From Oscillospiraceae bacterium (GTDB taxonomy: Bacteria > Bacillota > Clostridia > UBA1381 > UBA9506), in assembly GCA_015068555.1 (NCBI GenBank), contig SVKI01000001.1:21093-85092 (forward strand): a DNA stretch of 64,000 bases, read 5' to 3'. Of the stretch, positions 3,127 to 37,386 are shown piece by piece; the stretch's first letter is position 1; the number at the start of each line of letters is the position of its first letter. Under the pieces are notes generated by a model. The model did not search any database. It was not told the DNA's origin and saw only the letters and a program-made list of their open reading frames with translations. The position numbers and the translations under genes are program-made.

Positions 3127-3226
3127 AAAGCATTTTGGTTATAAAACTTGTATACTCCGTACAAAAAAAGACAAAGAAAGCGCATTTTTGTTATATAAAA
3201 ATTATCGAAAAAGCATTTTAGTTATA
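3127..3226. promoter_or_regulatory. Three direct copies of AAAGC(G)CATTTTnGTTATA in the divergent GH95 / AraC-hybrid intergenic region (candidate operator array)
   Basis: Copies are at 3127-3143 (AAAGCATTTTGGTTATA), 3177-3195 (AAAGCGCATTTTTGTTATA) and 3210-3226 (AAAGCATTTTAGTTATA). A fourth related copy, AAAGCATTTTTGTGGTAT, lies at 17062-17079 upstream of the first 520-aa paralog. Confidence 0.4.
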
Positions 3227-3271
3227 TACGAGAGAGGATTTTTCTTGTATGATATAGTTAGAGGTGAAAGT

Positions 3272-4933: not shown

Positions 4934-4967
4934 ATTATATAGCGAATTATAAAAGGGAGGAAACATA

Positions 4968-8690: not shown

Positions 8691-8718
8691 AAAGGCACTT
8701 GTCTCATGTGCCTTTTGG
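8691..8718 (+). terminator. Intrinsic terminator-like hairpin after the beta-helix gene
   Basis: AAAGGCAC-ttgtctcat-GTGCCTTTT begins immediately after the TAA at 8688-8690. Confidence 0.55.
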
Positions 8719-8840
8719 GTAACAAGGGATGTTAGCCAGGGGGAGAAGAAAGAGCATACTTCGATTTTCTCCTCTTGGCGCACCCTTCGTCACAAGCACA
8801 GGAGACAGTATAATAGATTCCTTTGAGAAAGGAGATTTTA

Positions 8841-17017: not shown

Positions 17018-17137
17018 CAATAAGGACTGTCTCGTTTGCGGGACAGTCCTTATTGTTAAAAAAAGCATTTTTGTGGTATCATTAGTCGGTGATGTTATGT
17101 ATAATACAGATAAAAACAACGAGATGGAGGGAAGCTT

Positions 17138-18700
17138 ATGATTATTGATATTGGTAATCGCAGAGAGGTTTTTTGGGATGATTATCTAGTGGATACGGAG
17201 GCTACGACGGCGGCGCTCACGATGCATAAGCCAGTAAAAAAGGAGATAGCCTATGTGTTTGATAAACCTTGGGAAACGAAGATTTTCAGCTATCCGCATT
17301 ATATTGAGTGGCAGGGTGAATGCCTGATGTATTACATTGCCGGTGTGCCTTGTAAGCAGCCCCTTAGACTTTCGAAGGACTTTAACAAGGAAGTGTCTGC
17401 CTTAAAATGCGTTTGTTTGATGAAGGGGCCGGACCCGTTCCATTTGGAAAGACCTAATTTGGGACTTTATGAAGTGAATGGTAGCAAGGACAATAATGTT
17501 TTGTTACAGCAGCGGTGCGAGGGTGACCTTGAAGAAGAATTTGATAATTTTTACGTATTTATTGATGAGAATCCTGATTGCCCGGCCGATGAGAAAATTA
17601 AAGCGCTGGCGCAGCAGATTAATCACAGCAAAGGTTTCCCAGGATTTCGTGAACTATGGTGCTACACATCAGGTGATGGCATCAACTTTAAGCTCGGCTG
17701 GAAGTTATCGGGTGCTGACGAGCCGTTTGCCGGCCTGTTTGACTCTTTAAACACCGCGCATTATGATAAAGAAGCAGGCGTTTACAGAATGTATGTACGT
17801 GGATTGCATTTAGGCTATGGTGTTGCGGCATCGGCCAACGAAACAGGTCTTGTGACTGCAGAAATGGAGAAAGACTTAGCAGCAGATGGCATTCGCGATA
17901 TCCGTTATATGGAATCAAAAGACTTTAAGACTTGGACCGTGCCCAGACAGATTTCCTACAATGATGATTATGATTTCCCTTTATATACCAATACTGTGCA
18001 GAAATATGCACGCGCGCCACATATGTATCTCGGTTTTCCAACTCGTTATGTAGAGCGTAAGAGATGGACGGGAAATTTCGACCAGTTGGGTGGCGAAGAA
18101 AACGTTGCCTGGAGAAAAGAGAGAATGGAGAGCAGTCCCCGCCACGGTCTAGCTGTTACCGATGCTATTTTTATGAGCTCGAGAGACGGTTTTAACTGGC
18201 ACCGTTTCCCCGAAGCGTTTGCAGGTGCGGAGCCGGAGCATGCTCACAACTGGGTATATGGTGATGCATATTTTATGAATAATGTGATGGAAACGCCTTG
18301 TGAGGCACCGGAGGTTGGGACAGAAATTTCGCTTTTTGCTAAAGAACTTAACCGCGAATACAGAATGCTGCGGCATTACACCTTGCGCCTTGACGGTTTT
18401 GCTTCTTATCATGCTGATTATGATGTGAAGGTGCTTGAGACAAAGCCGATTATCTATGACGGCAGCGAGCTTTCGATTAACTTTAAGACCTCTGCAATCG
18501 GATTTATGTATATTGATATTTTAGATGAGACAGGTAAGCCGATTGACGGTTATCATAGCTGTGAACTTTTTGGCAATACCACCGATAGAACTGTTTACTT
18601 TGGTGATGGTAAGGATGTTTCGGCACTTAGCGGCAGACCAGTGAAACTGCGGTTTACCATGCGTGATGCAGATATCTATTCCTTCATTTTCAGAGATTAG
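17138..18700 (+). CDS. Uncharacterized cytoplasmic protein, paralog A (propeller-plus-beta-sandwich glycosidase-like architecture is only a guess)
   Basis: RBS GGAGGGAAG. 520 aa with no signal peptide. Colinear with 19843-21405 without indels. The N-terminus GNRREVFWDDYLVD...KPWE and the C-terminus LRLDGFASYHA...VKLRFTMRDADIYSFIF resemble poorly characterized glycosidase-like families, but no family is firmly recognised. Confidence 0.4.
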   Translation: MIIDIGNRREVFWDDYLVDTEATTAALTMHKPVKKEIAYVFDKPWETKIFSYPHYIEWQGECLMYYIAGVPCKQPLRLSKDFNKEVSALKCVCLMKGPDPFHLERPNLGLYEVNGSKDNNVLLQQRCEGDLEEEFDNFYVFIDENPDCPADEKIKALAQQINHSKGFPGFRELWCYTSGDGINFKLGWKLSGADEPFAGLFDSLNTAHYDKEAGVYRMYVRGLHLGYGVAASANETGLVTAEMEKDLAADGIRDIRYMESKDFKTWTVPRQISYNDDYDFPLYTNTVQKYARAPHMYLGFPTRYVERKRWTGNFDQLGGEENVAWRKERMESSPRHGLAVTDAIFMSSRDGFNWHRFPEAFAGAEPEHAHNWVYGDAYFMNNVMETPCEAPEVGTEISLFAKELNREYRMLRHYTLRLDGFASYHADYDVKVLETKPIIYDGSELSINFKTSAIGFMYIDILDETGKPIDGYHSCELFGNTTDRTVYFGDGKDVSALSGRPVKLRFTMRDADIYSFIFRD

Positions 18701-18712
18701 GAGAATATTATT

Positions 18713-19831
18713 ATGAGGATTACAAAACACGGTATTATTTATTCAGGTGAACATGAACCTATGTTATCAAGTTGTGCGTTTCCCGGCATTTGTCAGCTTC
18801 ATGATGGGACTATGATGGCTAGCTTTAAGGGTGCCGAAACAAAGGGGCCTTACAATAAGACGGACCGGGCAATGTTTTGCATTTCTACAGATAATGGAGA
18901 GAACTGGAGTGAACCGAGGGCGTTTTTTGAACCACCTGTTGTTGATGGAAAGCCGACCACGATTCGTACCGGATATTTTGTAGAGGTTACACCCGGACAT
19001 GTTATGGCTGTTATAAACGCCGTGGATGCCACGATGGAGGATCTACCTTATTATAATGAGGAAACTGAGGGTTTGAAAGACACCTACATCATGGTTGCAC
19101 ATTCTTTGGATGGTGGTGCAAACTGGTCGGATTTGGAAAGAATACAGGTAAGTACATTCTATGATATGCCTTTGCCGTTGACAGGTGCTCCGTTTGTGAC
19201 TAAGGAGGGCAGAGTCGGCATTCAGTTTGAGGTGAACAAGCCTTATTATGAGACGGCTTATTGGGTGCATCATAGCTGTGCGGTATTCTCTGATGACGGT
19301 GGTTATACCTGGGGAGATGAAGTGGTGATTACGGATTGCCCCACGGTATATTATTGGGATCAGAGGCTTGATACTTTAGCGGATGGCACGGTTACGGATA
19401 TTTTTTGGACATTCGACAGAGATAAGGGTGATTATGTAAATATTCACTATTGTGAAAGCCAAGATGGTGGTCGCACCTTTGGAGATCTGATTGATACCGG
19501 TTTAGTTGGTCAGCCGGGCAATGTGATAGACGGTTTTAACGGAGAAATTTTAGCTGTTTATATTAACCGTGACAGTGTGCCGGAGATCAGACTGGCACAG
19601 AGCCTTGACCATGGCAAAACCTGGGCTGATGTGATGACGGTTTATACCTATGGGAAAGACACAAAAGGCAAGAAGAACGCAGGTATGAATGATGTGTGGA
19701 GTGAGATGGCAGCTTTCTCGATAGGACATCCCTATATGGAACGCATGCAAGACGGCAGCATCTGGGTTTATTTTTACAGCGGTCCTTCTATACACAGAAC
19801 GGATTTTCATTTCATTAAGATTGAACAATAG
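18713..19831 (+). CDS. Cytoplasmic Asp-box (BNR) six-bladed propeller protein, sialidase-like fold; catalytic status doubtful
   Basis: Five Asp-boxes are present: STDNGENWS, SLDGGANWS, SDDGGYTWG, SQDGGRTFG and SLDHGKTWA. There is no signal peptide. The position of the sialidase FRIP motif reads AFPGI, so the arginine is absent. Confidence 0.7.
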   Translation: MRITKHGIIYSGEHEPMLSSCAFPGICQLHDGTMMASFKGAETKGPYNKTDRAMFCISTDNGENWSEPRAFFEPPVVDGKPTTIRTGYFVEVTPGHVMAVINAVDATMEDLPYYNEETEGLKDTYIMVAHSLDGGANWSDLERIQVSTFYDMPLPLTGAPFVTKEGRVGIQFEVNKPYYETAYWVHHSCAVFSDDGGYTWGDEVVITDCPTVYYWDQRLDTLADGTVTDIFWTFDRDKGDYVNIHYCESQDGGRTFGDLIDTGLVGQPGNVIDGFNGEILAVYINRDSVPEIRLAQSLDHGKTWADVMTVYTYGKDTKGKKNAGMNDVWSEMAAFSIGHPYMERMQDGSIWVYFYSGPSIHRTDFHFIKIEQ

Positions 19832-19842
19832 GGAGGAAACTC

Positions 19843-21405
19843 ATGTATATCAATATCGGCAACAGGCGAGAGGTTTTATGGGATGATTTTTTGGTGGATA
19901 CTGAAAAAACAACAGCAAAACTGACACTGCATAAACCGACTAAGAAGGAACAAGTTTATACCTTTGATAAATTTTGGGAAGCAAAAGGTGTGAGTTATTT
20001 CAGCTATATCAAATGGCAGGGAGAGTATTACGTTTATTATACCTGCGGCATTCCCGGTGATGAACAATTTAAGCAAGCCAATGACGTTAATAAAGAAATC
20101 AGCAGTATGCGCGGTTTGTGCCTTATGAAGGGACCGGACTTATTCCACTTGGAACGTTATAATGTCGGCATGTTTGAGGTGAACGGAAGCCGTGAAAACA
20201 ATTTGATTAAGTTGCGGAGAAAAGACGGCACCTTTGAGGAGGAACTGGACAACTTTTTTGTATTTTTAGATGAAAACCCCGATTGTCCGCCGGATGAAAA
20301 AATTAAGGGTATTGCGCAAACGGTGAATCATGAAAAAATATTCCCGGGTTTTCGTGAACTTTGGTGCTACACATCGGGAGATGGCATAAACTTTAAATTG
20401 GGTTGGAAGCTATCCGGTGCTGATGAACCCTTTGCGGGTTTGTTTGACTCGGAAAACACGGCGCATTATGATAAAGAAGCCGGCGTTTACAGAATGTATG
20501 TACGCGGATTGCATTTGGATTATGGTCCGGCGGTTACTGCTAACGAAGATGGCTTGGTGTTAAAGCACATGGAAAAATCTCTGGCGACAGATGGCATTCG
20601 TGATATTCGGTACATGGAGTCGAAGGACTTTAAAACATGGACTGTGCCTCAACGCATTTCTTACAGTGATGCAGATGATTATCCTTTGTACACAAATGGC
20701 ATCAAGCGCTATGAACGTGCGCCGCATATGTATATTGGTACCGCTACACGATATACCGAGCGCAAGAGATGGACAGCCAATTATGATCAGTTGGGTGGTT
20801 CGGAAAATGTTGCCTGGAGAAAAGACAGAATGGCTATTGGACCTCGTATTGGTTTGGCGATTACGGATGCTGTGTTTATGTGTTCGCGCGATGGCTTACA
20901 GTGGACGAGATTTCCTGAGGCCTTTATGGGCGGAGAACCGGAGAGTGCATACAACTGGCTTTATGGCGACGTTTACCTGATGTATAATTTGACAGAGACG
21001 CCTTGTGAGGCGCCCAGCACGGAGACGGAACTTTCGATTTTTGCAGAAGAACATGTGCAGAAAACCTGTAAAGCACTACGTCGCTATACATTGCGTTTGG
21101 ATGGATTTGCTTCGTATCATGCTGACTACGATGTGAAGACTTTAGAAACCAAACCCATCATTTATGATGGACAGGAGCTTTCGATTAACTTCTCGACTTC
21201 TGCAATTGGCTTTGTGTATGTTGACATTTTAGATGAGTCTGGTAAGCCGATTGACGGTTATCATAGCTGTGAACTTTTTGGCAATACCACCGACAGAACT
21301 GTTTACTTTGGTGATGGTAAGGATGTTTCGGCACTTAGCGGCAGACCGGTTAAACTGCGGTTTACTATGCGTGATGCGGATATCTATTCTTATATTTTCA
21401 GATAA
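19843..21405 (+). CDS. Uncharacterized cytoplasmic protein, paralog B of 17138-18700
   Basis: RBS GGGAGGAAAC. Same 520-aa length as paralog A, at a constant offset of 2705 nt. The last ~180 nt are near-identical to the paralog A 3' end. Confidence 0.4.
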   Translation: MYINIGNRREVLWDDFLVDTEKTTAKLTLHKPTKKEQVYTFDKFWEAKGVSYFSYIKWQGEYYVYYTCGIPGDEQFKQANDVNKEISSMRGLCLMKGPDLFHLERYNVGMFEVNGSRENNLIKLRRKDGTFEEELDNFFVFLDENPDCPPDEKIKGIAQTVNHEKIFPGFRELWCYTSGDGINFKLGWKLSGADEPFAGLFDSENTAHYDKEAGVYRMYVRGLHLDYGPAVTANEDGLVLKHMEKSLATDGIRDIRYMESKDFKTWTVPQRISYSDADDYPLYTNGIKRYERAPHMYIGTATRYTERKRWTANYDQLGGSENVAWRKDRMAIGPRIGLAITDAVFMCSRDGLQWTRFPEAFMGGEPESAYNWLYGDVYLMYNLTETPCEAPSTETELSIFAEEHVQKTCKALRRYTLRLDGFASYHADYDVKTLETKPIIYDGQELSINFSTSAIGFVYVDILDESGKPIDGYHSCELFGNTTDRTVYFGDGKDVSALSGRPVKLRFTMRDADIYSYIFR

Positions 21406-22621: not shown

Positions 22622-23257
22622 TTATAGATTTGTTTTGCGGGAGACTGCAAGTGTTTTATAGATAATAGGTGCCAGCAAAACTGTGATAAGGATTTCCGGC
22701 ACCATATAAAGTCCGTTATAAAAGATAGAATAAATAAGTGCCAGTCCCGTTCCGGAGAAGGTATTCATAATCGTGCTTCCTATGGTATAGAACCCATCCT
22801 GGGTAAAAAACCATTCAGCCCAGCTGCCGAAAAAGACAGCACCGGAAATGATATGCAGGATGTAGCGCAGAAGAGGCGCTAGGCATGCACCGAGAGTCAT
22901 AGCGGTTAAACCGTTTTTGACTCTTTTTTTAAATATGCCGCCAAAGCCTAAGACTGTGTAGGCGAGGATGTAATCAATCAAACAAATTAAGATGGCAGCA
23001 AACAGGTTCATCTGGCTTTCGCCGGGCAGGAAAAAGGCGGACACGGTTTTCAGACCGAGCAAAAGCTGTAAAAGACTGAAAATAAAGGCGGAAAACAGGC
23101 CCCAGCGCGTGCCGTAGCAATAGGCGATGACAATGATGGGTAACATGGACCCGATTGTGATGCCGCCGCCAAAAGGCAACTGTAAGGGTTGAAAAATGGA
23201 CAGGACTGTGCCAATAGCAATGAGCATGGCTGTGGTGACAAGGCGTTTTGTTTTCAT
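22622..23257 (-). CDS. thiT: ECF-transporter S component for thiamine (ThiT-like)
   Basis: ATG at 23257 follows the RBS GGAGAAATCACC. It is a multi-TM protein starting MKTKRLVTTAMLIAIGTVLS and containing LRYILHIISGAVFFGSWAEW. A TPP riboswitch lies directly upstream. The track ORF start at 23380 would run through the riboswitch terminator and is rejected. Confidence 0.75.
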   Translation of the reverse strand: MKTKRLVTTAMLIAIGTVLSIFQPLQLPFGGGITIGSMLPIIVIAYCYGTRWGLFSAFIFSLLQLLLGLKTVSAFFLPGESQMNLFAAILICLIDYILAYTVLGFGGIFKKRVKNGLTAMTLGACLAPLLRYILHIISGAVFFGSWAEWFFTQDGFYTIGSTIMNTFSGTGLALIYSIFYNGLYMVPEILITVLLAPIIYKTLAVSRKTNL

Positions 23258-23299
23258 GGTGATTTCTCCGTTTTTTAGGGGTGGCGCATCTGATTCCTT

Positions 23300-23345
23300 G
23301 CAAAAAAAAGCAGAAATTGCGTGGGGCAATTTCTGCTTTTTTTTG
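23300..23345 (-). terminator. Intrinsic terminator acting as the expression platform of the TPP riboswitch
   Basis: The minus strand reads AAAAAAAAGCAGAAATTGC-cccac-GCAATTTCTGCTTTTTTTT, between the aptamer and the thiT RBS. Confidence 0.8.
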
Positions 23346-23349
23346 CAAT

Positions 23350-23432
23350 GTGAAATATTCCCTACGTTGGCATTACCCAAATCAGGTTGCGGGTCGAATA
23401 TAATTCCTCTCAGTCTTGCGACTCCCCGATAC
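23350..23432 (-). promoter_or_regulatory. TPP (THI-box) riboswitch aptamer
   Basis: The minus strand reads TATCGGGGAGTCGCAAGACTGAGAGGAATTATATTCGACCCGCAACCTGATTTGGGTAATGCCAACGTAGGGAA. It contains the conserved CUGAGA, ACCUGAU and GGUAAUGCC..CGUAGGGAA blocks. Confidence 0.9.
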
Positions 23433-23449
23433 TTATTTAACTTGGCTAT

Positions 23450-23478
23450 AGTATATCATACTTGCCTTGCAATGTCAA
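23450..23478 (-). promoter_or_regulatory. Sigma-A promoter for the riboswitch-thiT transcript
   Basis: On the minus strand: TTGACA (23478-23473), a 17-nt spacer, then TATACT (23455-23450), about 20 nt upstream of the aptamer. Confidence 0.7.
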
Positions 23479-23618
23479 GCCTTGCAAAAAACAACAAAGG
23501 TTTTGTTTTTGGGGTAAAACGGTGTAGGTTTCTATGCGATAACTATACAATTTTGATGTTTTGCATTTTGGGAAATTTTTTTTTGCTATACTGTCAGCGC
23601 GATGAGGGAGGTGATAGC

Positions 23619-25073
23619 GTGCAAGGTACAGGCAGTAATTTAGGGCATTATGTAATGGAGCTTTTGGCAAGACCGGTTATGGAGCTTGATGAACAAGACG
23701 CAAGTCAAGGTGGAGAAGACAGCGAGATGAATATAGCGCGGGCGTTGGTGAAAAAGGCAAGTGCAGGGGATCTACAGGCTATCAAAGAGATTAGAAGCCT
23801 GACTGAAAATTTGGGGATTCAGGAAAAACAAGAATTTCAGATGCCGGCTAAGATGCTTGCTGAACCGTATCTTTCCGTATGGCGTGACATCAAAAACAGG
23901 ATGCATACAGAATATGTTTTATACGGCGGACGTGGTAGTGCGAAATCGACCTTTATCAGCCTGATGATTGTAGACCTTTTACTTTCGAATCCTACGCTTC
24001 ATGCGGTTTTATGCAGGCGCGTTAAAGACACCTTACGGGATAGTGTTTATGCACAGATGAAGTGGGCTATTGCAGAGCTCGGGTACGAGGCGGAATTTGA
24101 GTGTCGTGTGAATCCTATGGAGATTATTTACAAGCCAACAGGGCAGAAAATCTATTTTCGAGGCGCGGATGATCCGGCAAAATTAAAATCCATTAAGGTG
24201 CCCTTTGGTTATATCGGCATTTTATGGTTTGAGGAGCTTGACCAGTTTTGTGGGGAGGAGGAAATCAGAAGTATTGAGCAATCGGTGATACGCGGTGGTG
24301 ACGAGGCCTACATTTTTAAATCCTTTAATCCCCCCAAAACAGCAGGCAATTGGGCAAATCAATATGTGTTATTGCCTAAGGAGAACCGGTTGGTAAAAAA
24401 AACAACCTATCTGGAGATTCCGCCGGAATGGTTAGGCAGGGTGTTTTTAGAGGAAGCAGAGCATTTGCGGGAAACAAATCCCCTGGCGTATGAACACGAA
24501 TACGAAGGGGTGGCAAATGGCGCCGGTGGGAACGTGTTTACCAATTTGACTGTTAGGGAAATTACGGATGCAGAAATTAACAGCTTTGACAGAATATATA
24601 ATGGCATTGACTGGGGCTGGTATCCGGATCCGTTTCGATTTCATCGGATGGCACATCTGGCTTCTGAAAGAAAGTTGTTTATTTTTGACGAGGTGAGCGG
24701 TAATAAATTGCCAAACCGAGAGATTGCAAATCTTTTGCGACAAAAGGGAATTGGACAGACAGATAAAATTACGGCTGATTCAGGCGGGGAAGGATTAAAA
24801 TCAATTGCAGATCTCAGGGAGATGGGCTTCTCTGTTCGTAGGGCAAAAAAGGGGCCGGGAAGCGTTGACTATTCGATGAAATGGCTTTCTTCACTACAGG
24901 AGATTATTATTGACCCGAAGCGATGTCCGGAGGCGTCAAAAGAGTTTATGCACTATGAATATGAGATGACAGAAAGTGGTGCGGTGGTGAGCGGATATCC
25001 GGACCGTGACAACCATTCCATTGATGCTGTGCGGTATGCATTAGAGGAAGTTTGGAGGAGAAGAGGAAAATGA
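23619..25073 (+). CDS. Phage terminase large subunit (PBSX-type) with an unusually long N-terminal extension
   Basis: GTG at 23619 lies 8 nt after GGGAGG. The Walker A motif reads VLYGGRGSAKST, and a C-terminal nuclease-like region reads DNHSIDAVRYALEE. The track ORF from 23196 is an antisense read-through across thiT and the riboswitch. Confidence 0.85.
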   Translation: MQGTGSNLGHYVMELLARPVMELDEQDASQGGEDSEMNIARALVKKASAGDLQAIKEIRSLTENLGIQEKQEFQMPAKMLAEPYLSVWRDIKNRMHTEYVLYGGRGSAKSTFISLMIVDLLLSNPTLHAVLCRRVKDTLRDSVYAQMKWAIAELGYEAEFECRVNPMEIIYKPTGQKIYFRGADDPAKLKSIKVPFGYIGILWFEELDQFCGEEEIRSIEQSVIRGGDEAYIFKSFNPPKTAGNWANQYVLLPKENRLVKKTTYLEIPPEWLGRVFLEEAEHLRETNPLAYEHEYEGVANGAGGNVFTNLTVREITDAEINSFDRIYNGIDWGWYPDPFRFHRMAHLASERKLFIFDEVSGNKLPNREIANLLRQKGIGQTDKITADSGGEGLKSIADLREMGFSVRRAKKGPGSVDYSMKWLSSLQEIIIDPKRCPEASKEFMHYEYEMTESGAVVSGYPDRDNHSIDAVRYALEEVWRRRGK

Positions 25074-26422
25074 TGGAATTAGAAACAAGTTACGCAATGA
25101 TGATGCAAAGCATTGAAAAAGTTCTTGGGAAAAAGGTTTTGGTATCTGACAAGATGAAAGATGCAATGATTCTGTGGGATAAGCTCTACAGATGTCAGGC
25201 ACCATGGCAAAAGGAAGAAGTGAAGAGCTTGTGTTTGGCGCCTACAGTGGTAAGTGAATTGGCCTGTCAGACAACGCTGGATTTTTCTTCTGTTATTTCC
25301 GGCAGCGAGCGCGCAGATTACCTAAATGAAAGTGTGTATCAGGAAACACTTGCAGATATCAGACAATGTGTGGAATACGCGTGTGCCTGTGGGGGATTGG
25401 TTTTTAAGCCCTATGTAGATAATGGCAAGCTTGCTGTTGAATATGTGCGTGCCAATGCGTTTTTTCCTATAGAGGTAGATTGTCGCGGGAAAATTATTTC
25501 TGCTGTCTTCACAGAGCAAAGAAGAAAAGGACTTCGATTGTTTACAAGGCTGGAGGTACACACGTTAGAAAAAGAAGGCGTTCGCACTCGAAATCTTGTT
25601 TTAGAAGGCGGGGCGTTTGTAGGCGGCGGTCGTCTAACTACCTTGCGCGAAGTGGAGGAATGGGCAGACCTTGCGGAAGAGGTTCTGCTTACCGGTGTCA
25701 AACAGCCACTGTTTTCATACCTTAAGATGCCGATAGCCAATACGGTTGATCCACAGTCGGCGCTCGGTGTTTCCATCTATTCACGAGCCGTTGGGCTTAT
25801 GGAGGAGGCAGATTTGCAGTTTTCGCGCTTATTGTGGGAATATGAAGGTGGCGAACTGGCCGTTGATGCAAGCGTGGATGCCCTGTTGATGGAAAATGGC
25901 GATATAAAGATGCCGGGATTAAAAAAACGTTTATTCCGGGCGTTGGATGTGGACACAGGCGGTGGTGATCTTTACAGTGTGTTTGCACCGCCGCTCAGAG
26001 ACGAATCCTATTTGAACGGATTGATGGAACTACTTATGCGAGTGGAAGATTTATGCGGTCTTGCACGCGGTACCTTTTCCAATTTAAATGGGTCTGCCAG
26101 GACGGCTACAGAGTTGAATATTCTCAGGCAGAGATCGTATTCCACGGTAACAGATATTCAAAAAGCCGTAGAAAGATCCTTACGTGACCTGGTTAAGGCT
26201 TTGGAAACAATGGCAACTGTTTTTGATCTTGTGCCGGAAGGACATTGTGATATTACCTTTTCCTTTGATGATAGCGTTGTGACAGACAGGGCATCTCAGT
26301 TTGAAGAAATGCAGCTTTTGGTATCACAGGGAATTCTGGATAAGTGGGAATTACGCAGTTGGTATTTAGGTGAAACGGAAGAACAGGCGAAAAAGAATTT
26401 GCCTGTTATAGAAAAAGAATAA
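25070..26422 (+). CDS. Phage portal protein (SPP1 gp6-like)
   Basis: An ATGA overlap joins it to the terminase stop, with RBS GGAGGAG. Its size (~450 aa) and position directly after the terminase fit a portal. The segment SLCLAPTVVSELACQTTLDF is typical of portals in Firmicute siphophages. Confidence 0.7.
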   Translation: MMELETSYAMMMQSIEKVLGKKVLVSDKMKDAMILWDKLYRCQAPWQKEEVKSLCLAPTVVSELACQTTLDFSSVISGSERADYLNESVYQETLADIRQCVEYACACGGLVFKPYVDNGKLAVEYVRANAFFPIEVDCRGKIISAVFTEQRRKGLRLFTRLEVHTLEKEGVRTRNLVLEGGAFVGGGRLTTLREVEEWADLAEEVLLTGVKQPLFSYLKMPIANTVDPQSALGVSIYSRAVGLMEEADLQFSRLLWEYEGGELAVDASVDALLMENGDIKMPGLKKRLFRALDVDTGGGDLYSVFAPPLRDESYLNGLMELLMRVEDLCGLARGTFSNLNGSARTATELNILRQRSYSTVTDIQKAVERSLRDLVKALETMATVFDLVPEGHCDITFSFDDSVVTDRASQFEEMQLLVSQGILDKWELRSWYLGETEEQAKKNLPVIEKE

Positions 26423-26554
26423 AGAAAATGTGCCTCTTGTCTTTGGGCAAAAGACGTTAAACAGGCCCACATGCCGCCTGTGTCGGCGGCTTAAAAATAG
26501 ACGGTGTTTTACGGAGCGGCCGGCCGAGAGACATCAGAATAGAAAGGAGACGTA

Positions 26555-27088
26555 ATGATTGAGCTGATTAAGGAGTTATTTGGTGAGGAAGTAACAGAAG
26601 AAAAAGTTTTAAAGCTACAAGAAATGCTCGAACAAAACTATGTATCACGCGCTGATTTTGAAAAGCTGCAGTCCGAATTCACAGATATGAAAACGCAGCA
26701 TGCTACAGAATTGGCAGAGAAAGAAGAGCAGGCAGACCAAGAAAAATTTATGATCCTGCTACAGCATGCCTTAGAAAAGGCAGGTGCAAAGAATCAGAAA
26801 GCTGTTTTAGCTCTGCTATCTATGGAAGGCTTGCGTTATGAAAACGGACAGATCAAAGGTCTTTTAGAACAGCTGGAGGAATTAAAGCGTGAAAACGGTT
26901 ACTTGTTTGAGGAAAAAGCCGGTTTTGTACAGTTTGTGCGTCCGGGGTCTTCCAGTCGTTCAGAGATTACAGAGGAAGATTTCAGAAATATGAGCTACAT
27001 GGAAAAGTTAAAGCTCAAAAAGGAACAACCGGCTTTGTATCAGGAATTTATAAAAAAAACAGGAGGTAAATCATGTCGACTTATTTAA
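26555..27088 (+). CDS. Phage scaffolding protein (GP20-like coiled coil)
   Basis: RBS AAAGGAGA. The 177-aa protein is strongly charged and helical, and lies between the portal and capsid genes. Confidence 0.6.
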   Translation: MIELIKELFGEEVTEEKVLKLQEMLEQNYVSRADFEKLQSEFTDMKTQHATELAEKEEQADQEKFMILLQHALEKAGAKNQKAVLALLSMEGLRYENGQIKGLLEQLEELKRENGYLFEEKAGFVQFVRPGSSSRSEITEEDFRNMSYMEKLKLKKEQPALYQEFIKKTGGKSCRLI

Positions 27089-28092
27089 ACTTTCCATTTG
27101 ATCAGGAGATTTTCTTACACAGTTGGGAGGCTGCACCCGATCCGACAAAAACAGCTATGATTGATAGTGGTGCACTGGTAGAGGATGCTATGATTGAGGC
27201 ACGCATTCAAAATGATGGTTGCCTTTACACCATTCCTTTTTACAGTGCGTTAGACGGTGAACCGGACAATTATGACGGTGCAACAGATATTATGGCTCAG
27301 GAACCCGTGGGTGGCAGTCAGACCGGTGTTGTATACGGCCGCGGTAAAGGCTTTACGGCGCGCAATTTTGCGGCAGAACTTTCCGGTGGTGATCCGCTTG
27401 GCCATATTGCCACTACAATCGGCAAATATTGGGCAAAACAGCGCCAGAAAAACCTGCTTGCCATTTTAGAAGCAATTTTTGGTATTACCGGTAGCGGCAA
27501 TGCTAAGAAGTGGCAGGAAAATCACGTAGTTGATTTAACCAAGGAAGCATCTGCTGCCTATACCATCGGTGCAACAGATTTAAACGATTTGGCTACAAAA
27601 GCATTGGGCGACAACAAGAATCTGTTTTCTCTGGCTATTATGCATTCTGATGTTGCTAAGACCCTGGAAAATCTGCAGCTTTTAGAGTTCTGGAAGTACA
27701 CAGATGCAAATGGTATTCAAAGACCTGCGTCTATTGCCTCTGTAAGCGGCTTTACCGTTGTGATTGATGATGGCGTACCTGTTGACCGCACCAGCGAAAG
27801 CGGTACACCTGCTTACACCACATACCTTTTGGGTGAAGGTGCTATCAGAACTGCTAAAGCCAGAGTGGATGTACCGGCTGAGGTACATCGCGATCCCAGT
27901 GTTAACGGTGGTCAGGATACATTATATACCAGAATTCGCGAGACAATTCATCCGAACGGTTTCTCGTTTAATGTACCTGGTAGCGATTGGACCAATAGCC
28001 CGACCGATGCACAATTAGGTGCAACAGCAAACTGGTCAATCTCCTTTGATCCTAAGGCAATTCCTATTGCTAAGCTTGTAACAAACGGTTAA
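27073..28092 (+). CDS. Phage major capsid protein (putative HK97-fold)
   Basis: RBS GGAGG 7 nt upstream. It overlaps the scaffold gene by 16 nt. Its size (339 aa) and position fit a capsid, but no specific family is recognised by eye. Confidence 0.6.
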   Translation: MSTYLNFPFDQEIFLHSWEAAPDPTKTAMIDSGALVEDAMIEARIQNDGCLYTIPFYSALDGEPDNYDGATDIMAQEPVGGSQTGVVYGRGKGFTARNFAAELSGGDPLGHIATTIGKYWAKQRQKNLLAILEAIFGITGSGNAKKWQENHVVDLTKEASAAYTIGATDLNDLATKALGDNKNLFSLAIMHSDVAKTLENLQLLEFWKYTDANGIQRPASIASVSGFTVVIDDGVPVDRTSESGTPAYTTYLLGEGAIRTAKARVDVPAEVHRDPSVNGGQDTLYTRIRETIHPNGFSFNVPGSDWTNSPTDAQLGATANWSISFDPKAIPIAKLVTNG

Positions 28093-28217
28093 TGTTGAAT
28101 GTGGGGCGGGAGGGAGGAAAGAGCGTATGATAGATTATTCATATTATAAAGATACATGGTAAAATAATTCTCACAAGCACAGCAACAACAGGTGTTGTAT
28201 ACGCTAAAATCGGTAGC

Positions 28218-28688
28218 GTGTTTTTTGAAAAGGGAAAAACATATCATAGAGCAATTTTAGAACAGGAAAATACATTCAGTTATCCTTATTTTAAGAAAAA
28301 CGATTTTATGCCGTATTATCCTACCTTTCCGATAGAGGAAGATATCTCGCTGGATGTGGGTGTATATATGGAAGATATTAGTCAAGTCGGTAATGTTGCA
28401 AGCATTTATATTCAAATTGAGGAAGGGCCGGAAGCTCCGGTCGAATATACAAAGTACATAGAAGATATAACCGAAGTTACTGTAACGAAACAGACGGATG
28501 GCGGAGTGGAGGAAGCTTATACACCGCGTGCTGACGGCGTTGTGGAGGGCGTTATGTCTTCCTCGCCTTCTATGTTGCTTTCTGCAAATACAAACGATGC
28601 TGTTATAAACTGTACATATAATGTTGATACAAACAAGGCGATTGAGCGCCTGACAGATGCGATTATTTCATTAGGAGGGAACGTATAA
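28218..28688 (+). CDS. Phage hypothetical protein, possibly the 3' remnant of a tail-fiber/baseplate-region gene
   Basis: The GTG start has no convincing RBS. The gene lies just before an XkdX-like ORF, as in PBSX-type late regions. The true N-terminus is uncertain. Confidence 0.35.
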   Translation: MFFEKGKTYHRAILEQENTFSYPYFKKNDFMPYYPTFPIEEDISLDVGVYMEDISQVGNVASIYIQIEEGPEAPVEYTKYIEDITEVTVTKQTDGGVEEAYTPRADGVVEGVMSSSPSMLLSANTNDAVINCTYNVDTNKAIERLTDAIISLGGNV

Positions 28689-28891
28689 TGTTTAATTTGA
28701 GAGATTTTATTAAAAAGGGCTTACTGGATGCAATAGGTAAAATGGCGGATTATCAGGTTATCTTACATGCGGTTGGCTGGCATGAGAAGGGCGTTTTGAC
28801 AGAAGATGACCTGGCTGAAATTAACGCAGTCATTGGGGAGCAACACCTGAATATAGAAGAGGCTCCGCACCAAGCAGAAGGGAGCCAATAA
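28688..28891 (+). CDS. XkdX-like small phage protein
   Basis: 67 aa. The ...GWHEKGVLTEDDLAEINAVIGE pattern resembles XkdX-family proteins, which sit between tail-fiber genes and the lysis cassette. The start overlaps the upstream stop. Confidence 0.45.
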   Translation: MFNLRDFIKKGLLDAIGKMADYQVILHAVGWHEKGVLTEDDLAEINAVIGEQHLNIEEAPHQAEGSQ

Positions 28892-28907
28892 GGGAGGTTG
28901 ATTGGTC

Positions 28908-30122
28908 ATGAAGGTGTTTATTGACGCCGGACACAATTATACGGGTCATGATACCGGTGCTCAGGGCAACGGCTTAAAAGAGCAGGAGGTTAGTTTTACC
29001 ATCGCCGACTATTTGCGTTTGTTGCTTTTAGAGGCTGGTCATAATGTTAAAATGAGCCGGAACAGTATGACAGATTCTGTAGGGAATACGGTTTCTTCCA
29101 GCATAGGCGGTCGTGCAGCGCAGGCAAATGAATGGGGAGCAGATGTATTTCTTTCCATTCATTGCAATGCCGGGGGCGGACGCGGAACAGAGTGCCTGAT
29201 ATATGGCCGTGGCGGAACATCAGAAGAATATGCTACCGGGATTCAAAGAACCATTGTAGATAGATTGGGCACTATGAACAGGGGTGTAAAAGTCAGAGCC
29301 GAACTGGGCGTTTGGCGATTGACTTCCATGCCGGCAGTTTTGATTGAAACGGCTTTTATCGACAATGAAGCAGATGCAAGACTTTTGCGAGATCAGCCGG
29401 AGAATTTTGCCCTTGCCATTTTTGAAGGATTACTTGAAAAAATGGATCAGAAATCCATAGAAAACAATACGAACCAAACAGTTATGAGGTTACCTTCTGA
29501 GGTTTATGTACAGGAAATAGAGCCGGAAAACTTTGATATTTTGGTATGTGATGCAAAAAAACGAAGCGTAGCTAAAAACAGATATTTTAACGGCGGTTAT
29601 TTTGCAGTGCAGGCAGACGGCAGCACAATACCGGTAGGAAATCTGGCATCAGAAGGTGTTATTGTGGCGCAGGCAAAGGACAATCCGGCATGGATTAATC
29701 TGTCACAAAAGGCCCTCACGACGATCTACACGGTTAAAGACTATGAAAAGGACCGTTTTTTTTGCTATATATCAAAGACTGACAGGTTAGAGAATATTCC
29801 GGGATTAAGATCTGCGATTTCCGGCATTCCCATTATTTTTAACGGAAAATTCGTACCTTATGAAGCGATTTTAGCAGAAGGTTATTTTGGTAATGAACTA
29901 TATGATACATGGCATGGATTTTTGGGTATACGTAACCAAAAGCTTTGTTATGTTGCTATGAAATGCGGTTTTGAAGAAATGTGTTGGGCATTGGTTGCTT
30001 TGGGTATCTACGATGCCATTAAGTTAGACGGTGGCGGTTCATTTATTCTGCATGACATAAAAGAGCTTTCCGGTACTTATGAAAACAGAAGAATTCACAA
30101 TGTGGGAGTGTGGACCTCATGA
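28908..30122 (+). CDS. Endolysin: N-terminal N-acetylmuramoyl-L-alanine amidase (Amidase_3) plus C-terminal phosphodiester-glycosidase-like (NAGPA/DUF2233-like) domain
   Basis: ATG at 28908 follows GGGAGG. The amidase part reads FIDAGHNYTGHDTGA...LSIHCNAGGGRGTE...IETAFIDNEADA. The C-terminal part reads FNGGYF...LGIRNQKLCYVAMK...ALGIYDAIKLDGGGSFIL. Confidence 0.75.
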   Translation: MKVFIDAGHNYTGHDTGAQGNGLKEQEVSFTIADYLRLLLLEAGHNVKMSRNSMTDSVGNTVSSSIGGRAAQANEWGADVFLSIHCNAGGGRGTECLIYGRGGTSEEYATGIQRTIVDRLGTMNRGVKVRAELGVWRLTSMPAVLIETAFIDNEADARLLRDQPENFALAIFEGLLEKMDQKSIENNTNQTVMRLPSEVYVQEIEPENFDILVCDAKKRSVAKNRYFNGGYFAVQADGSTIPVGNLASEGVIVAQAKDNPAWINLSQKALTTIYTVKDYEKDRFFCYISKTDRLENIPGLRSAISGIPIIFNGKFVPYEAILAEGYFGNELYDTWHGFLGIRNQKLCYVAMKCGFEEMCWALVALGIYDAIKLDGGGSFILHDIKELSGTYENRRIHNVGVWTS

Positions 30123-33469: not shown

Positions 33470-33892
33470 TTAAATGGTTTTTGCAGCAGAGATAACCTCG
33501 TAGGCTTGTTCCATAATAAGTGTTAAGCGCTCTTCCTGTCCGGTTAAGTACAAATATCCCAGCAAGGCTTCAAATCCCGTTGCATACCGGTAATCGGTTA
33601 CACTGGCGTGCTTAGGTGTTGTGGCCGAGTGTGCATTACGACCACGTTTAAACACACTATCCTCTTCTTCTGTAAGTGTGCTCATCAATTCTCTTACAAC
33701 CATGCTTTGGGCTTCAGCACGGACATACCTAACGGCTTCTTTGTGCAATTTATTGGCTGAGGTATTGGCTTTTAGCAAAACCTTTGTGCGAATAAATGTT
33801 TCATACACGCCATCTCCCACAAAGGCAAGAGCCAGGGGAGAGTAGCCACGGGCCTCACTGATGGTCATATGTGGAAGGGATTTACTGTTCAT
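33470..33892 (-). CDS. mrnC: Mini-ribonuclease III
   Basis: LALAFVGDGVYETFIR and ATGFEALLGYLYL motifs. It sits in the conserved position downstream of cysS. Confidence 0.85.
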   Translation of the reverse strand: MNSKSLPHMTISEARGYSPLALAFVGDGVYETFIRTKVLLKANTSANKLHKEAVRYVRAEAQSMVVRELMSTLTEEEDSVFKRGRNAHSATTPKHASVTDYRYATGFEALLGYLYLTGQEERLTLIMEQAYEVISAAKTI

Positions 33893-35297
33893 CCTGCACC
33901 TTCTTGATGTTTAATTTCATGCCCTGGCGTGTATCAAGAACTTCTACGCCTAACGCCTTTAATTCATCACGTAAGCGGTCAGAAAGTGCCCAGTCTTTGT
34001 TCTGACGAGCTTCTGCGCGTTGCTTTAAAAGTTCTTTTACTTCATCGCTGACGGAGTCTTCTTGTTTCTTGTAGAGGACACCCAGAACCGTGCCCAGTTC
34101 TTTTAATTTATTGATGGAAGCATCAATAACTGCAAGAGGAGATTCAGCACGAATGCCGGAATTTAAGAATCTGGCCAAATCAAACAGAACAGAAATGGCA
34201 TCAGCGGTGTTTACGTCATCATCCATAGCGGCCACAAAGCGATCACCAAATTCTTCTATCTGCTTCAAGATTGCTTCGTCTTCTTCTGTTAAGGCTTTTT
34301 TCTGTGCTTTTGCCTGTAAAAATTCGAGATTATACAGGCAGGTATATAAGCGCTCAAGACCGGCCTGCGACTGCTTTAAAAGCTCATCTGAAAAGTTGAT
34401 GGCGCTGCGGTAATGGGCAGAAAGCATGAAGAAACGAATCACTTCGTAATCATATTTCTTAGAAACATCGCGAACGGTAAAGAAGTTACCCTTGGATTTT
34501 GCCATTTTTTCGTTGTTAACATTGATATAGCCGTTGTGGAGCCAATAGCGGGCAAAGGGCTTGCCGTTTGCGCATTCGCTTTGTGCAATTTCGTTTTCAT
34601 GGTGCGGGAAGATAAGGTCTTGACCACCGGAGTGAATATCAATGGTTTCACCTAAATAACGATTTGCCATGGCGGAGCATTCGATATGCCAACCGGGACG
34701 GCCTTCACCCCAGGGACTTTGCCATGCGGGCTCACCTTCTTTTTTGTTTTTCCAGAGCGCGAAATCCATGGGATTTTTTTTGCGCTCATCCACATCGATT
34801 CTGGCGCCGGCTTCCAACTCCTCTAAAGGCTGACCGGAGAGTTTGCCGTATTCAGAAAAACGGTGAATGTCAAAATACACATCGCCATCAGCTTCGTAAG
34901 CATATCCCTTTTCGATTAAGCGGCTGACGATATCGATGATAGCGTCAATATTATCGGTTGCACGGGGATGCACGCTGGCTTCTGTAATGGAAAGCCCCTT
35001 TGCATCAATGAAATACTCTTCGATAAATTTGTCTGCCAGCTGGCGAACGGTAACGCCCTGCTCGTTGGCGTTTTTAATCATTTTATCGTCAATATCCGTA
35101 AAGTTCTGAACAAACTTTACCTGATAGCCGCGGTATTCAAAATAGCGGCGCAGTGTATCGAAAATAATAAAGGGCCGTGCGTTACCGATGTGGAAAAAAT
35201 TATATACGGTCGGTCCGCAGGAATACATTTTAACTTCGCCGGGGACCAACGGAATAAACTCTTCTTTTTTTCGTGTCATAGTGTTGTACAGTTTCAT
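33882..35297 (-). CDS. cysS: Cysteine--tRNA ligase
   Basis: CGPTVYNFFHIGNARP (HIGH region) and KMAKSKGN (KMSKS region). Confidence 0.95.
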   Translation of the reverse strand: MKLYNTMTRKKEEFIPLVPGEVKMYSCGPTVYNFFHIGNARPFIIFDTLRRYFEYRGYQVKFVQNFTDIDDKMIKNANEQGVTVRQLADKFIEEYFIDAKGLSITEASVHPRATDNIDAIIDIVSRLIEKGYAYEADGDVYFDIHRFSEYGKLSGQPLEELEAGARIDVDERKKNPMDFALWKNKKEGEPAWQSPWGEGRPGWHIECSAMANRYLGETIDIHSGGQDLIFPHHENEIAQSECANGKPFARYWLHNGYINVNNEKMAKSKGNFFTVRDVSKKYDYEVIRFFMLSAHYRSAINFSDELLKQSQAGLERLYTCLYNLEFLQAKAQKKALTEEDEAILKQIEEFGDRFVAAMDDDVNTADAISVLFDLARFLNSGIRAESPLAVIDASINKLKELGTVLGVLYKKQEDSVSDEVKELLKQRAEARQNKDWALSDRLRDELKALGVEVLDTRQGMKLNIKKVQDEQ

Positions 35298-35312: not shown

Positions 35313-35969
35313 TTAATCAATGGATTCTTCATGTTGCGTCTCGTTTGTTTGGGCAAGACGTTTTTCCAGCTTTTCGAGCCTTGCCTGAAGTCGGCAGAGT
35401 TCCTGCGAGACAGGGTCGGGGATATGTATTTGGTCTAAATCGGATACTCTTTTATTGTTAATTTTAACAATCCGGGCGGGCACACCAACACAAGTGGAGT
35501 TGGGCGGCACTTCTCTTAAAACCACGGCGCCGGCAGCAATTTTGGAATTATCGCCCACGGTAAAGGGGCCTAATACCTTAGCGCCGCTTCCGACCGTTAC
35601 ATTGTTGCCTAAGGTAGGGTGACGTTTGCCGCTTTCCTTACCGGTACCACCTAAGGTAACGCCTTGATACAGCGTGCAGTTGTCGCCAATTTCGGTGGTT
35701 TCACCAATCACAACACCCATGCCGTGGTCGATAAAAAGACCGCGACCGATTTTGGCACCGGGATGAATTTCGATGCCTGTGAAAAAACGGCATGTTTGTG
35801 AAATGAAACGAGCCAACCCGAAACAGTGCTTTTTATATAACCAATGTGCAAAACGATACCAGCAAACTGCATGAAATCCTGAATACATAAAAAAGACTTC
35901 AAATCCGTTACGGGCTGCAGGATCCCGCTCGCGAATTGCGCGGATATCTGCTCTCATTCGACTAAACAA
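35313..35969 (-). CDS. cysE: Serine O-acetyltransferase
   Basis: The N-terminal SATase helix region is followed by hexapeptide repeats ([41 protein letters not shown]). Confidence 0.9.
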
Positions 35970-36094: not shown

Positions 36095-36141
36095 TTTGAA
36101 AAAATTATCCCCACTGCTAATGGAACATCGGCAGTGGGGAT
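36095..36141 (-). terminator. Intrinsic terminator of the Cys-rich gene
   Basis: The minus strand reads ATCCCCACTGC-cgatgttccatta-GCAGTGGGGAT followed by AATTTTTT. Confidence 0.8.
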
Positions 36142-36162: not shown

Positions 36163-36510
36163 CTAACAGTCGCAATTTTGATTGCATCTGCTGTTACAGG
36201 ATGTGCCACATTCTGTATAGGGCATCGGGCAGCAACAGCCAGAACAATCTGTGCGGTGATTTGTCAGTTCTCTGACTTTATCTAACGCTTCATCAGCACA
36301 ATCAGCAGCACGTTTAGCCTGGCAAGCAGCTTGCTCAGCGGCTTGTGCGGCTTCTCGTGCGGCACAAGAGAGTGCTTCAGAACGATGAGCCGCTCTTTCA
36401 GCTACCTTTGCTGCTTTAGCGGCCTCGCAGGCAGCTGCTTCTGCTTCTCTTAGTGCACACTGCAGAGCGCGATTCATAGCACCGCATGCAGAACAGTTAC
36501 AACAACACAT
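36163..36510 (-). CDS. Orphan 115-aa protein: Cys-rich termini flanking an Ala/Glu-rich helical core
   Basis: RBS GGAGG 7 nt upstream, and it has its own terminator. The sequence runs MCCCNCSACG...(AEAAACEAAKAAKVAERAA...AAQAAEQAACQAKRAADCADEA)...CSGCCCPMPYTECGTSCNSRCNQNCDC. No family is recognised. Confidence 0.6.
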   Translation of the reverse strand: MCCCNCSACGAMNRALQCALREAEAAACEAAKAAKVAERAAHRSEALSCAAREAAQAAEQAACQAKRAADCADEALDKVRELTNHRTDCSGCCCPMPYTECGTSCNSRCNQNCDC

Positions 36511-36638
36511 AAAAAAACCTCCGTTTCATACTTTAAATTCTGCTGTTTATGAGGGAGGAATGCCCTCAGTTTCACTATATGCAAAGAATGATTTGGGGTG
36601 ACAATTATGTCTAAATTAATAATTTATTGTCATCAGAC

Positions 36639-36705: not shown

Positions 36706-37386
36706 ATGATAGAAAATACATACCAGGCCATAGAGCGTGCACGTGCGGAGAGAAGACGCAAGCGACAGCAGAGAAGGAAAAGAGAATGGCTTGTTTTAAT
36801 TGGTGTTGTTATATGTTTGTTTGTTGTTTTGTTGGTGGTTTCACTCCGAAAACCGGCACAACCACCCAAAGACAATATAGACAATCCTTTGCAAATTGCC
36901 TATAACCGCACGCCGCAAAGTAGGTCAAAAAATGACATCCGCTATATTGTTATACATGATACGGCGAATAAGGAAAAAAACGCTGATGCAAAAAGCCATT
37001 ATGATTTTTTTAACAGTGGTGCCCAGGGCATGAGTGCAGATTTTTTTGTAGATGATGAAGAGATCCTGCAGGTGAATAACTACTACCAATATTACACCTG
37101 GCATTGTGGTGATGGGAGTGCGCAAAATGAAATTACAAATATGAACAGTATCGGCGTGGAGATTTGCGTCAACCGCGATGGAAATTATGAAAAAGCTGTA
37201 GATAATGCGGTGTTATTGGTTCGAAAACTGATGCACGAGCTTTCAATTGATGCTTCCTGCGTTGTGCGACATTACGATGCAAGCGGGAAGGAATGTCCCG
37301 CTTCTATGAGCGCACATGGTTGGAAGAAATGGGAGCAACTTAAAAAGAAAATTATGGAAATGCCAACACAAAGAACCGAAGAGTGA
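36706..37386 (+). CDS. Membrane-anchored N-acetylmuramoyl-L-alanine amidase (Amidase_2/PGRP type)
   Basis: A basic N-terminus is followed by a TM helix (WLVLIGVVICLFVVLLVV). The catalytic region reads IRYIVIHDTAN...WHCGDG...IGVEICVN...VVRHYDASGKECP. Confidence 0.8.
   Translation: MIENTYQAIERARAERRRKRQQRRKREWLVLIGVVICLFVVLLVVSLRKPAQPPKDNIDNPLQIAYNRTPQSRSKNDIRYIVIHDTANKEKNADAKSHYDFFNSGAQGMSADFFVDDEEILQVNNYYQYYTWHCGDGSAQNEITNMNSIGVEICVNRDGNYEKAVDNAVLLVRKLMHELSIDASCVVRHYDASGKECPASMSAHGWKKWEQLKKKIMEMPTQRTEE

Follow-up and report, generated by a model that had tools for sequence, protein, structure and literature searches.

A conserved family of small cysteine-rich proteins with a predicted alanine-zipper core and a sigma-K-type promoter in uncultured Clostridia

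A small gene of unusual amino acid composition lies on the minus strand of a 64,000-nucleotide stretch of DNA from an Oscillospiraceae bacterium (assembly GCA_015068555.1, contig SVKI01000001.1); this whole stretch is referred to here as the window. The open reading frame (ORF) occupies positions 36163-36510 (-), with a TAG stop codon at 36165-36163, and encodes a protein of 115 amino acids, an assignment based on the ORF list and its translation and on homologues. The full protein sequence is MCCCNCSACGAMNRALQCALREAEAAACEAAKAAKVAERAAHRSEALSCAAREAAQAAEQAACQAKRAADCADEALDKVRELTNHRTDCSGCCCPMPYTECGTSCNSRCNQNCDC; the translation in the ORF list is identical to the one quoted earlier for this locus. 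Cysteine makes up 19 of the 115 residues (16.5%) and alanine 29 (25%). Three parts can be distinguished: an N-terminal Cys cluster (residues 1-9), an Ala/Glu-rich heptad helix (residues ~6-88) and a Cys-rich C-terminal tail (residues 89-115). Five of the cysteines are in the N-terminal MCCCNCSAC, five are single residues in the core (C18, C28, C49, C63 and C71), and nine fall within the C-terminal 27 residues. A preliminary description of the locus had put the count at about 20, one too many, and had the distribution over termini and core right.

The signals around the ORF are those of an independent gene. A Shine-Dalgarno sequence, GGAGG, is found at 36518-36522 (-), 7 nt 5' of the ATG, and it occupies the same place in all of the homologue loci. 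Beyond the stop codon there is an intrinsic terminator at 36099-36141 (-), in which a hairpin of 11+4 bp (36107-36141) is followed by a U-tract at 36099-36104. The hairpin begins 22 nt past the stop codon. When this strand was folded its free energy was -26.5 kcal/mol (z = -4.63), and none of 200 shuffled sequences was equally stable. A simple terminator scan overlooked this hairpin because of its long loop. GC-rich hairpins likewise occur 3' of the homologue genes in the loci that were fetched. With these elements, and with the putative promoter and 5' hairpin described below, the gene has the layout of a monocistronic unit (sigma-K-type promoter, conserved 5' hairpin, strong ribosome-binding site, ORF and terminator). 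The preliminary description of a stand-alone gene with a GGAGG ribosome-binding site and its own terminator is thus confirmed, as is that of the divergent neighbour as a membrane-anchored amidase: the gene at 36706-37386 (+) encodes an Amidase_2 protein with a hydrophobic N-terminal segment. Downstream on the same strand are cysE (35313-35969), cysS (33882-35297; the CysS of this contig is MBE7009900.1) and the gene for mini-RNase III. No paralogue of the 115-residue protein was found within the window. The gene is present in five metagenomes with DNA that is 100% identical, i.e., from the same strain, and a test for purifying selection was uninformative because of this identity.

Relatives of the protein are easily missed. 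A word-indexed phmmer search with the single sequence gave zero matches and did not even recover the protein's own cluster, and a scan of genome contigs with the single protein produced 461 pattern matches and zero relatives. The failure of phmmer to detect homologues is due to the composition-bias correction of HMMER, a term that for this protein amounts to 48.7 bits in hmmsearch; with ~49 bits taken away, routine searches hardly detect the family. An unindexed HMMER scan of 1.8 billion representatives detected five homologues, with expectation (E) values of 4e-22 to 1e-4. Profile searches gave 37 clusters and then 9 more, for a total of about 45 homologue clusters with proteins of 81-136 residues. 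When the genome contigs were scanned with a family alignment (A3), at least three loci were obtained. The gene had previously been called an orphan, which is wrong. All of the ~45 clusters are unnamed or annotated as 'hypothetical', and their sources are metagenomes or metagenome-assembled genomes (MAGs) of uncultured organisms labelled Ruminococcaceae, Oscillospiraceae or Clostridia. The exact 115-residue protein is missing from the cluster table, yet it is present in JGI and ENA gene calls.

Across the ~45 clusters the family conserves its start, length class, ribosome-binding site, promoter and terminator. No member matched any family above threshold in Pfam, NCBIfam, PHROGs or PDB. The matches in Pfam, NCBIfam and PHROGs were all sub-threshold and compositional (DUF3450, GARP, Alanine_zipper, a Ser-Ala repeat, TolA and tail-fibre coiled coils). 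Judged by this conservation, these small Cys-rich proteins form a real, conserved and undescribed family. Several subfamilies co-occur in the same metagenomes, e.g., L006 and L012 in JGI 3300029305, L011 and the contig of P0030 in JGI 3300031555, and L001 and L009 in JGI 3300032167. The forms that co-occur are a long form in a citrate-synthase context, a form in a parE-uvrB context and a short form of 81-91 residues.

The predicted promoter bears on when the gene might be expressed. It spans 36574-36599 (-) and consists of a -35 AC at 36599-36598, a 16-nt spacer and a -10 element, CATATAGT, at 36581-36574. Sigma-E and sigma-K promoters share their -10 element and differ at -35, where sigma-E has ATA and sigma-K has AC (Saujet et al. 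2013, PMC3789822). In the same work the sigK P2 promoter is given as CATATAAT/AC. The element in the window fits the sigma-K consensus of Clostridioides difficile and Bacillus subtilis, with AC at -35, a spacer of 16-17 nt and a -10 of the form CATA(TA)nT, resembling CATATAAT (consensus from PMC3789822). In the 64-kb window the strict pattern occurs 2 times, as compared with 0.4 expected by chance. For comparison, 12 homologue loci from different organisms, 92 kb in total, were fetched. In 10 of the 12, a strict AC-N16-CATATANT lies 67-87 nt 5' of the ATG; in the window this distance is 89 nt. One of the two remaining loci has AC-N16-CATATCAT and the other has a rearranged 5' end. On both strands of the 92 kb there are 13 strict AC-N16-CATATANT matches, and 10 of these are the homologue promoter sites. 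An earlier reading of the DNA had noted only a loose likeness to a sigma-K-type promoter at 36597-36571; the element is a real one, strict and conserved in 10 of 12 loci, and those coordinates were off by 2 nt.

The genes around the homologues vary. The two closest clades have citrate synthase and Amidase_2 in the vicinity, a further clade has parE...uvrB, and NlpC/P60, aconitase or HSP90 occur in others. In each of the fetched loci the gene is nonetheless a stand-alone unit with its own hairpin terminator. Since the neighbourhoods differ from locus to locus, the promoter is conserved with the gene and not with its context. One homologue, P0036 (L019, 170-580), is without the promoter, and its N-terminus is aberrant, reading MDSERSKKICTQRDKRNSNCFNGG... 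instead of MCNCFNGG. The probable cause is a contig end that is rearranged or chimeric, or else decay of this copy.

Just 5' of the -35 element there is a further short motif, T(C/T)GACA(A/T), whose copy in the window is AGACAT at 36606-36611 (-). The motif was recognised by eye in most loci. It is found 8-10 nt 5' of the -35 AC in the window and in L006, L009, L010, L011, L012 and L015, and within the promoter spacer in L008, L010, L013, L016, L017 and L018. This box may be a candidate site for an auxiliary mother-cell regulator, possibly one like SpoIIID. The motif is similar to part of the SpoIIID recognition sequence of B. subtilis.

On the other side of the promoter, a conserved hairpin, UGAGGG-cauuccu-CCCUCA, occupies 36550-36568 (-). 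It starts 6 nt past the -10 element, and with the usual distance from a -10 to a start site it would lie at or near the extreme 5' end of the mRNA, the start site being predicted from the promoter. In ten loci GAAAnUGAG directly follows the -10 and leads into a 6-bp hairpin with the composition UGAGnn, a loop of 4-7 nt, and nnCUCA. Besides the window, it is found at equivalent positions in L006, L008-L013, L015 and L016. The stem pairs were tabulated by script, since MAFFT misplaced the 3' arm owing to unequal loop lengths. All 60 of the 60 stem cells pair over the ten loci, pairs 5 and 6 swap between G-C and A-U, and the hairpin is the minimum free energy structure in 9 of 9 sequences folded. 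The hairpin motif, CATATANTGAAANTGAG, occurs once in the window. In a distant clade (L017 and L018) the promoter is retained and the hairpin sequence is not. Stem-loops at the 5' terminus can stabilise mRNA, for example in the aprE leader (work cited in PMC3997798).

The family alignment (A2) is the basis for a common layout of these proteins. The N-terminus is of the type M-C-x-C-C, and the middle 70-80 residues are rich in Ala, Glu, Lys and Arg. The C-terminal tail opens with a near-invariant G-C-x-C, C92 and C94 being present in at least 90% of the members. DCDC, CC-D or C-C-N is its usual ending, and Tyr, Asn, His and Asp stand between this and the opening motif. The positions of the helix cysteines differ from clade to clade. 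The window protein has no lipoprotein signal peptide in its sequence. When the monomer was modelled by AlphaFold2 with the family alignment, a single unbroken helix was predicted for residues 6-88, with a predicted local distance difference test score (pLDDT) of 92-98 over residues 11-80 and low confidence in the tails. A separate AlphaFold2 run on the homologue P0010, also as a monomer, gave a helix at residues 13-91 with high pLDDT.

The helix has a strict internal order. Heptad statistics over 36 sequences show position a to be Ala in 78% of cases and Cys in 0%, position d to be Ala in 67% and Cys in 1.2%, and position e to be Ala in 68% and Cys in 0.6%; the other residues at these three positions are L, V, I or M. 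At positions b, c, f and g, by comparison, Ala accounts for 9-26% and Cys for 7.6-18%, and the others are mainly charged (E/K/R/D) or Gln. Of ~183 cysteines in the helices, 177 (~97%) are at the solvent-facing positions b, c, f and g. The power spectrum of Ala has its maximum at 3.5 residues. Insertions and deletions in the core are of 7 or 21 residues in every case. This combination of Ala periodicity, Ala at a, d and e, and changes in length by whole heptads is characteristic of an Ala-zipper ('Alacoil'-like) coiled coil, as predicted from the heptad pattern. The seam of Ala at a, d and e suggests that the helices could associate in a tight higher-order bundle.

Database similarities of the helix are confined to weak profile matches, namely to Rop, the alanine zipper of Lpp, GARP and designed antiparallel four-helix coiled coils. 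The best PDB sequence-profile match is Rop (E = 0.0098), along with designed helical proteins, and this is not homology. PF11839 (Alanine_zipper) is matched by 8 of the 36 members with a best E value of 0.0089, which is sub-threshold, and NF040598 by 3 of the 36; the proteins belong neither to Alanine_zipper nor to the Lpp/OprI family. A Foldseek search of the PDB with the single-helix model gave no match.

Spore formation is suggested by genes that accompany the homologues in related organisms. For example, sigG adjoins P0004 in a related MAG (above the NCBIfam cut-off). Near P0010 there are genes for BofA, the inhibitor of pro-sigma-K processing (a Pfam match that is just under the NCBIfam cut-off), and for the YlmC/YmxH sporulation protein (above the cut-off). 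With a promoter of this type conserved next to the gene in most loci, the gene for the 115-residue protein is likely to be a sporulation gene under sigma-K control.

What the protein does in a sporulating cell is a separate question. The reading we favour, with a probability of roughly 0.55, is that the mother cell makes it late and that it forms an Ala-zipper rod, rich in Cys at its ends, which is cross-linked into the coat or exosporium. RNA polymerase with sigma-K would transcribe the gene in the mother cell at a late stage of sporulation, and the hairpin at the 5' end would stabilise the mRNA. Helices of ~80 residues (~12 nm) would then associate along their Ala seams as small coiled-coil bundles, which could be antiparallel tetramers. 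The resulting rods would be laid down on the spore surface, in the coat, crust or exosporium. Once conditions turn oxidising, the outward thiols of the helices and the Cys-rich ends would make intermolecular disulfides; additional links could be metal-thiolate bridges or dityrosine. Such cross-linking would yield a lattice or fibre that is insoluble and protective. The richness of the tails in Cys, Tyr, Asn and His is shared by many coat proteins. A disulfide-linked component of the coat or exosporium had been among the earlier suggestions for this gene. That suggestion is favoured by the conserved promoter and by SigG, BofA and YlmC/YmxH in relatives, and fails to gain support from homology to any known coat protein.

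Several Cys-rich proteins of spore surfaces provide a precedent. CdeC, CsxA, ExsY/CotY and CotY are Cys-rich self-assembling proteins of this kind (PMC7677010, PMC7333573, PMC5434927, PMC4950064). CdeC and CdeM in C. difficile, CsxA in Clostridium sporogenes and C. botulinum, ExsY and CotY in the Bacillus cereus group, and CotY and CotZ in B. subtilis are late mother-cell proteins that self-assemble into disulfide-locked outermost layers. Like the CdeC/CsxA/ExsY/CotY group, the gene in the window has a sigma-K-type promoter, and the Cys density of its product is comparable or higher. In contrast to them, the window protein is much smaller and is predicted to be a single helix with an Ala core and disordered Cys tails, not a globular lattice subunit. 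There is no detectable relationship in sequence or fold to any of these proteins. It is plausible that the family is functionally akin to the Cys-rich spore-surface class, yet it belongs to none of the families in that class and has a distinct architecture.

For the rod itself there are parallels outside of spores. Rop, Lpp-56 (the Braun lipoprotein) and the coiled-coil silks of honeybees and hornets all have heptads with Ala at core and flanking positions, which leads to tight packing of the bundles. Ala-rich insect coiled-coil silks are structural materials that have a central Ala-rich coiled coil and unstructured ends (PMC12284834). None of these proteins, however, bears Cys on an exposed face or Cys-rich termini as the family does, and the profile matches to them are compositional and sub-threshold. 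In trichocyte (hard) keratins and the keratin-associated proteins, a coiled-coil rod with Cys-rich heads and tails is disulfide cross-linked into a hard material. Hard keratins share this design principle with the family. They are eukaryotic proteins without relationship in sequence, their rods are far longer and they form obligate heterodimers, so that the comparison is an analogy only. A bolder form of the proposal, and one that is rather improbable as it stands, casts the family as the equivalent, in bacteria, of hard keratin or coiled-coil silk. Kept reduced and able to assemble inside the mother cell of a strict anaerobe, rods of ~12 nm would become a disulfide fibre or lattice when the mother cell lyses and they first meet oxygen. 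Oxygen would thus trigger the hardening of the shell, by way of a fold new to spore integuments.

A number of points weigh against the idea of a cross-linked rod on the spore surface. Searches of Pfam and NCBIfam, the PDB profile search and Foldseek detected no likeness in sequence or fold to known coat or exosporium proteins. In an anaerobe the cytoplasm of the mother cell is a reducing environment, and disulfides could therefore arise only once the protein has been released. Tails such as HDCDCDCDC and HHDHSHDCC fit metal binding equally well. AlphaFold2 models of single chains carry no information on the number or orientation of partners. The promoter, the transcription start site and the function of the hairpin are predictions from sequence. 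The 64-kb window yielded no gene specific to sporulation; the CwlD-like and SpoVB-like matches in it are far below cut-offs. The spore-forming background is evident only in the relatives that bear homologues, and sigK itself was not seen among the examined loci and the window.

The strongest competing explanation, though still a tentative one that we think improbable overall, is a metal-binding protein. The Cys, His and Asp of the tails, perhaps together with thiols of the helix, would coordinate Zn, Cu(I), Ni, Cd or a cluster of the Fe-S kind, and the protein would act as a metallothionein-like sink or reservoir, possibly in sporulation. CxC, CC and DCDC motifs are near-universal in the family: C92 and C94 recur in at least 90% of the members and a terminal DCDC is common. 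Several tails are also rich in His, e.g., those of P0024-26 and P0038 (...HHDHSHDCC) and P0017 (HDCDCDCDC). Metal storage and spore assembly can moreover be linked, as in B. subtilis, where Csp3 is tied to sporulation and gives copper to a coat enzyme during the process (PMC9484137). Csp1 and Csp3 (DUF326) are, like the window protein, small, helical and very rich in Cys, with Ala-rich helices. The Csps, however, are four-helix-bundle monomers with their cysteines directed towards the core (PMC5171941), whereas the core of the family is Ala, its cysteines face outward, and one helix is predicted (an intermolecular bundle is possible). The DUF326 profile did not match the window protein at E<=10 or any of 36 family members at E<=1, and none of the 36 matches a metallothionein model. 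A Cys-lined bundle for metal storage of the Csp/DUF326 type, as proposed in the preliminary description, is unsupported: it fails on the profile, on the four-helix monomer (the monomer prediction has one helix) and on core-facing Cys, ~97% of the helix cysteines being exposed. For metal binding in general, no gene of the copA, csoR, czrA or arsR type adjoins any of the 12 loci, and helix Cys positions that vary between clades are unlike a fixed metal site. Chelation of metal by the tails is compatible with a location in the coat and does not exclude the structural role.

It is less probable again that the protein is a soluble reserve of thiol, redox capacity or cysteine made late in the mother cell, i.e., a sacrificial antioxidant or a store of Cys and Ala that is adsorbed to the spore and bears no load. 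A redox buffer had been the third suggestion of the preliminary description. A composition of 16.5% Cys and 25% Ala, exposed thiols and a promoter of the late-sporulation type would suit such a role. On the other hand, the strict heptad register, the Ala seam and the insertion or loss of whole heptads indicate selection for a precise rod geometry, which a reserve would not be expected to show. The known amino acid reserves of spores, the small acid-soluble proteins (SASPs), are forespore proteins under sigma-G, and this too counts against a mother-cell store.

A precursor of a ribosomally synthesized and post-translationally modified peptide (RiPP), of the SCIFF/ranthipeptide or sactipeptide-like kind, is very unlikely. 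The helix would be the leader and the Cys-rich tail the core peptide. SCIFF/ranthipeptide precursors are small clostridial peptides with a C-terminal run of Cys of the CxxxC type, and the C-terminal CGTSCNSRCNQNCDC resembles their Cys spacing, which serves as a lead only. Members of the family are 2-3 times longer than such precursors, however, and have a conserved coiled-coil body; there was no match to an NCBIfam SCIFF model. No radical-SAM maturase, protease or exporter adjoins any of the 12 loci, and an 80-residue, strictly heptad-periodic helix that itself bears Cys would be an unusually long leader.

Still less can be said for a Cys-rich leader or sensor ORF that governs cysE-cysS, in which stalling of ribosomes at Cys codons beside the terminator hairpin would give attenuation in place of a T-box. 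The gene is directly 5' of cysE and cysS on the same strand, nine of its last 27 codons are for Cys, the hairpin comes 22 nt past the stop, and neither a T-box nor any other riboswitch was found between the ORF and cysE at gathering or E-value threshold. However, no homologue locus from other organisms has cysE/cysS downstream, and with synteny not conserved the idea is effectively refuted; conservation is seen in the protein sequence, in the heptad pattern and in the sporulation-type promoter, and the hairpin with its U-tract is an ordinary terminator of the kind also present 3' of homologues. A spurious ORF in GC-rich, low-complexity DNA, as the composition, the empty routine phmmer search and the missing entry in the cluster table might suggest, is refuted by the conserved start, length class, ribosome-binding site, promoter and terminator of ~45 clusters and by their whole-heptad insertions and deletions.

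Elsewhere in the window there are several other features of note. A phage-like cluster at 23196-30122 (+), ~6 kb from the gene for the 115-residue protein, encodes a terminase large subunit (PF04466, 23196-25073), an SPP1-type portal protein (PF05133, 25052-26422), three ORFs (26555-28688) and an Amidase_3/NAGPA protein (28902-30122). The cluster may be what is left of a small prophage, or an element like a gene transfer agent. A thiamine pyrophosphate (TPP) riboswitch at 23342-23438 (-), RF00059 with 65.9 bits, is the only Rfam match in the window at gathering threshold. There is overlap both with the mechanically extended 5' part of the terminase ORF and with the 5' end of a minus-strand ORF called mechanically at 22622-23380, whose true start probably lies further downstream. 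A block of genes for very large surface or glycan-related proteins is found at 3188-21405 (+). Its members include a fusion of a BNR/sialidase-like protein with AraC, a GH141/beta-helix protein of 1240 residues and two proteins with SLH and F5/8 type C domains (1639 and 1092 residues). The block also holds two ORFs of 520 residues without a Pfam match.

The Oscillospiraceae and Ruminococcaceae of the gut are abundant and for the most part uncultured; the coats and exosporia of their spores are essentially uncharacterised, and homologues of the coat proteins known from Bacillus and C. difficile are rare in them. That coat proteins can be rich in Cys is already established, and the taxonomic range of the family is narrow. 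Within that range the family is a candidate for a surface component whose architecture, an Ala-zipper helix with outward thiols and Cys-rich ends, is very simple and open to design. Should the protein bind metal instead, the family would add a new, sporulation-linked type to the metallothioneins of bacteria. If the proposal of a cross-linked spore-surface rod is true, the family would be a new structural solution within the recurring theme of Cys-rich self-assembling spore shells and possibly a useful scaffold for cross-linkable protein materials. The gene, together with its sigma-K promoter and 5' hairpin, would then also provide a sequence marker of late sporulation genes in these lineages.

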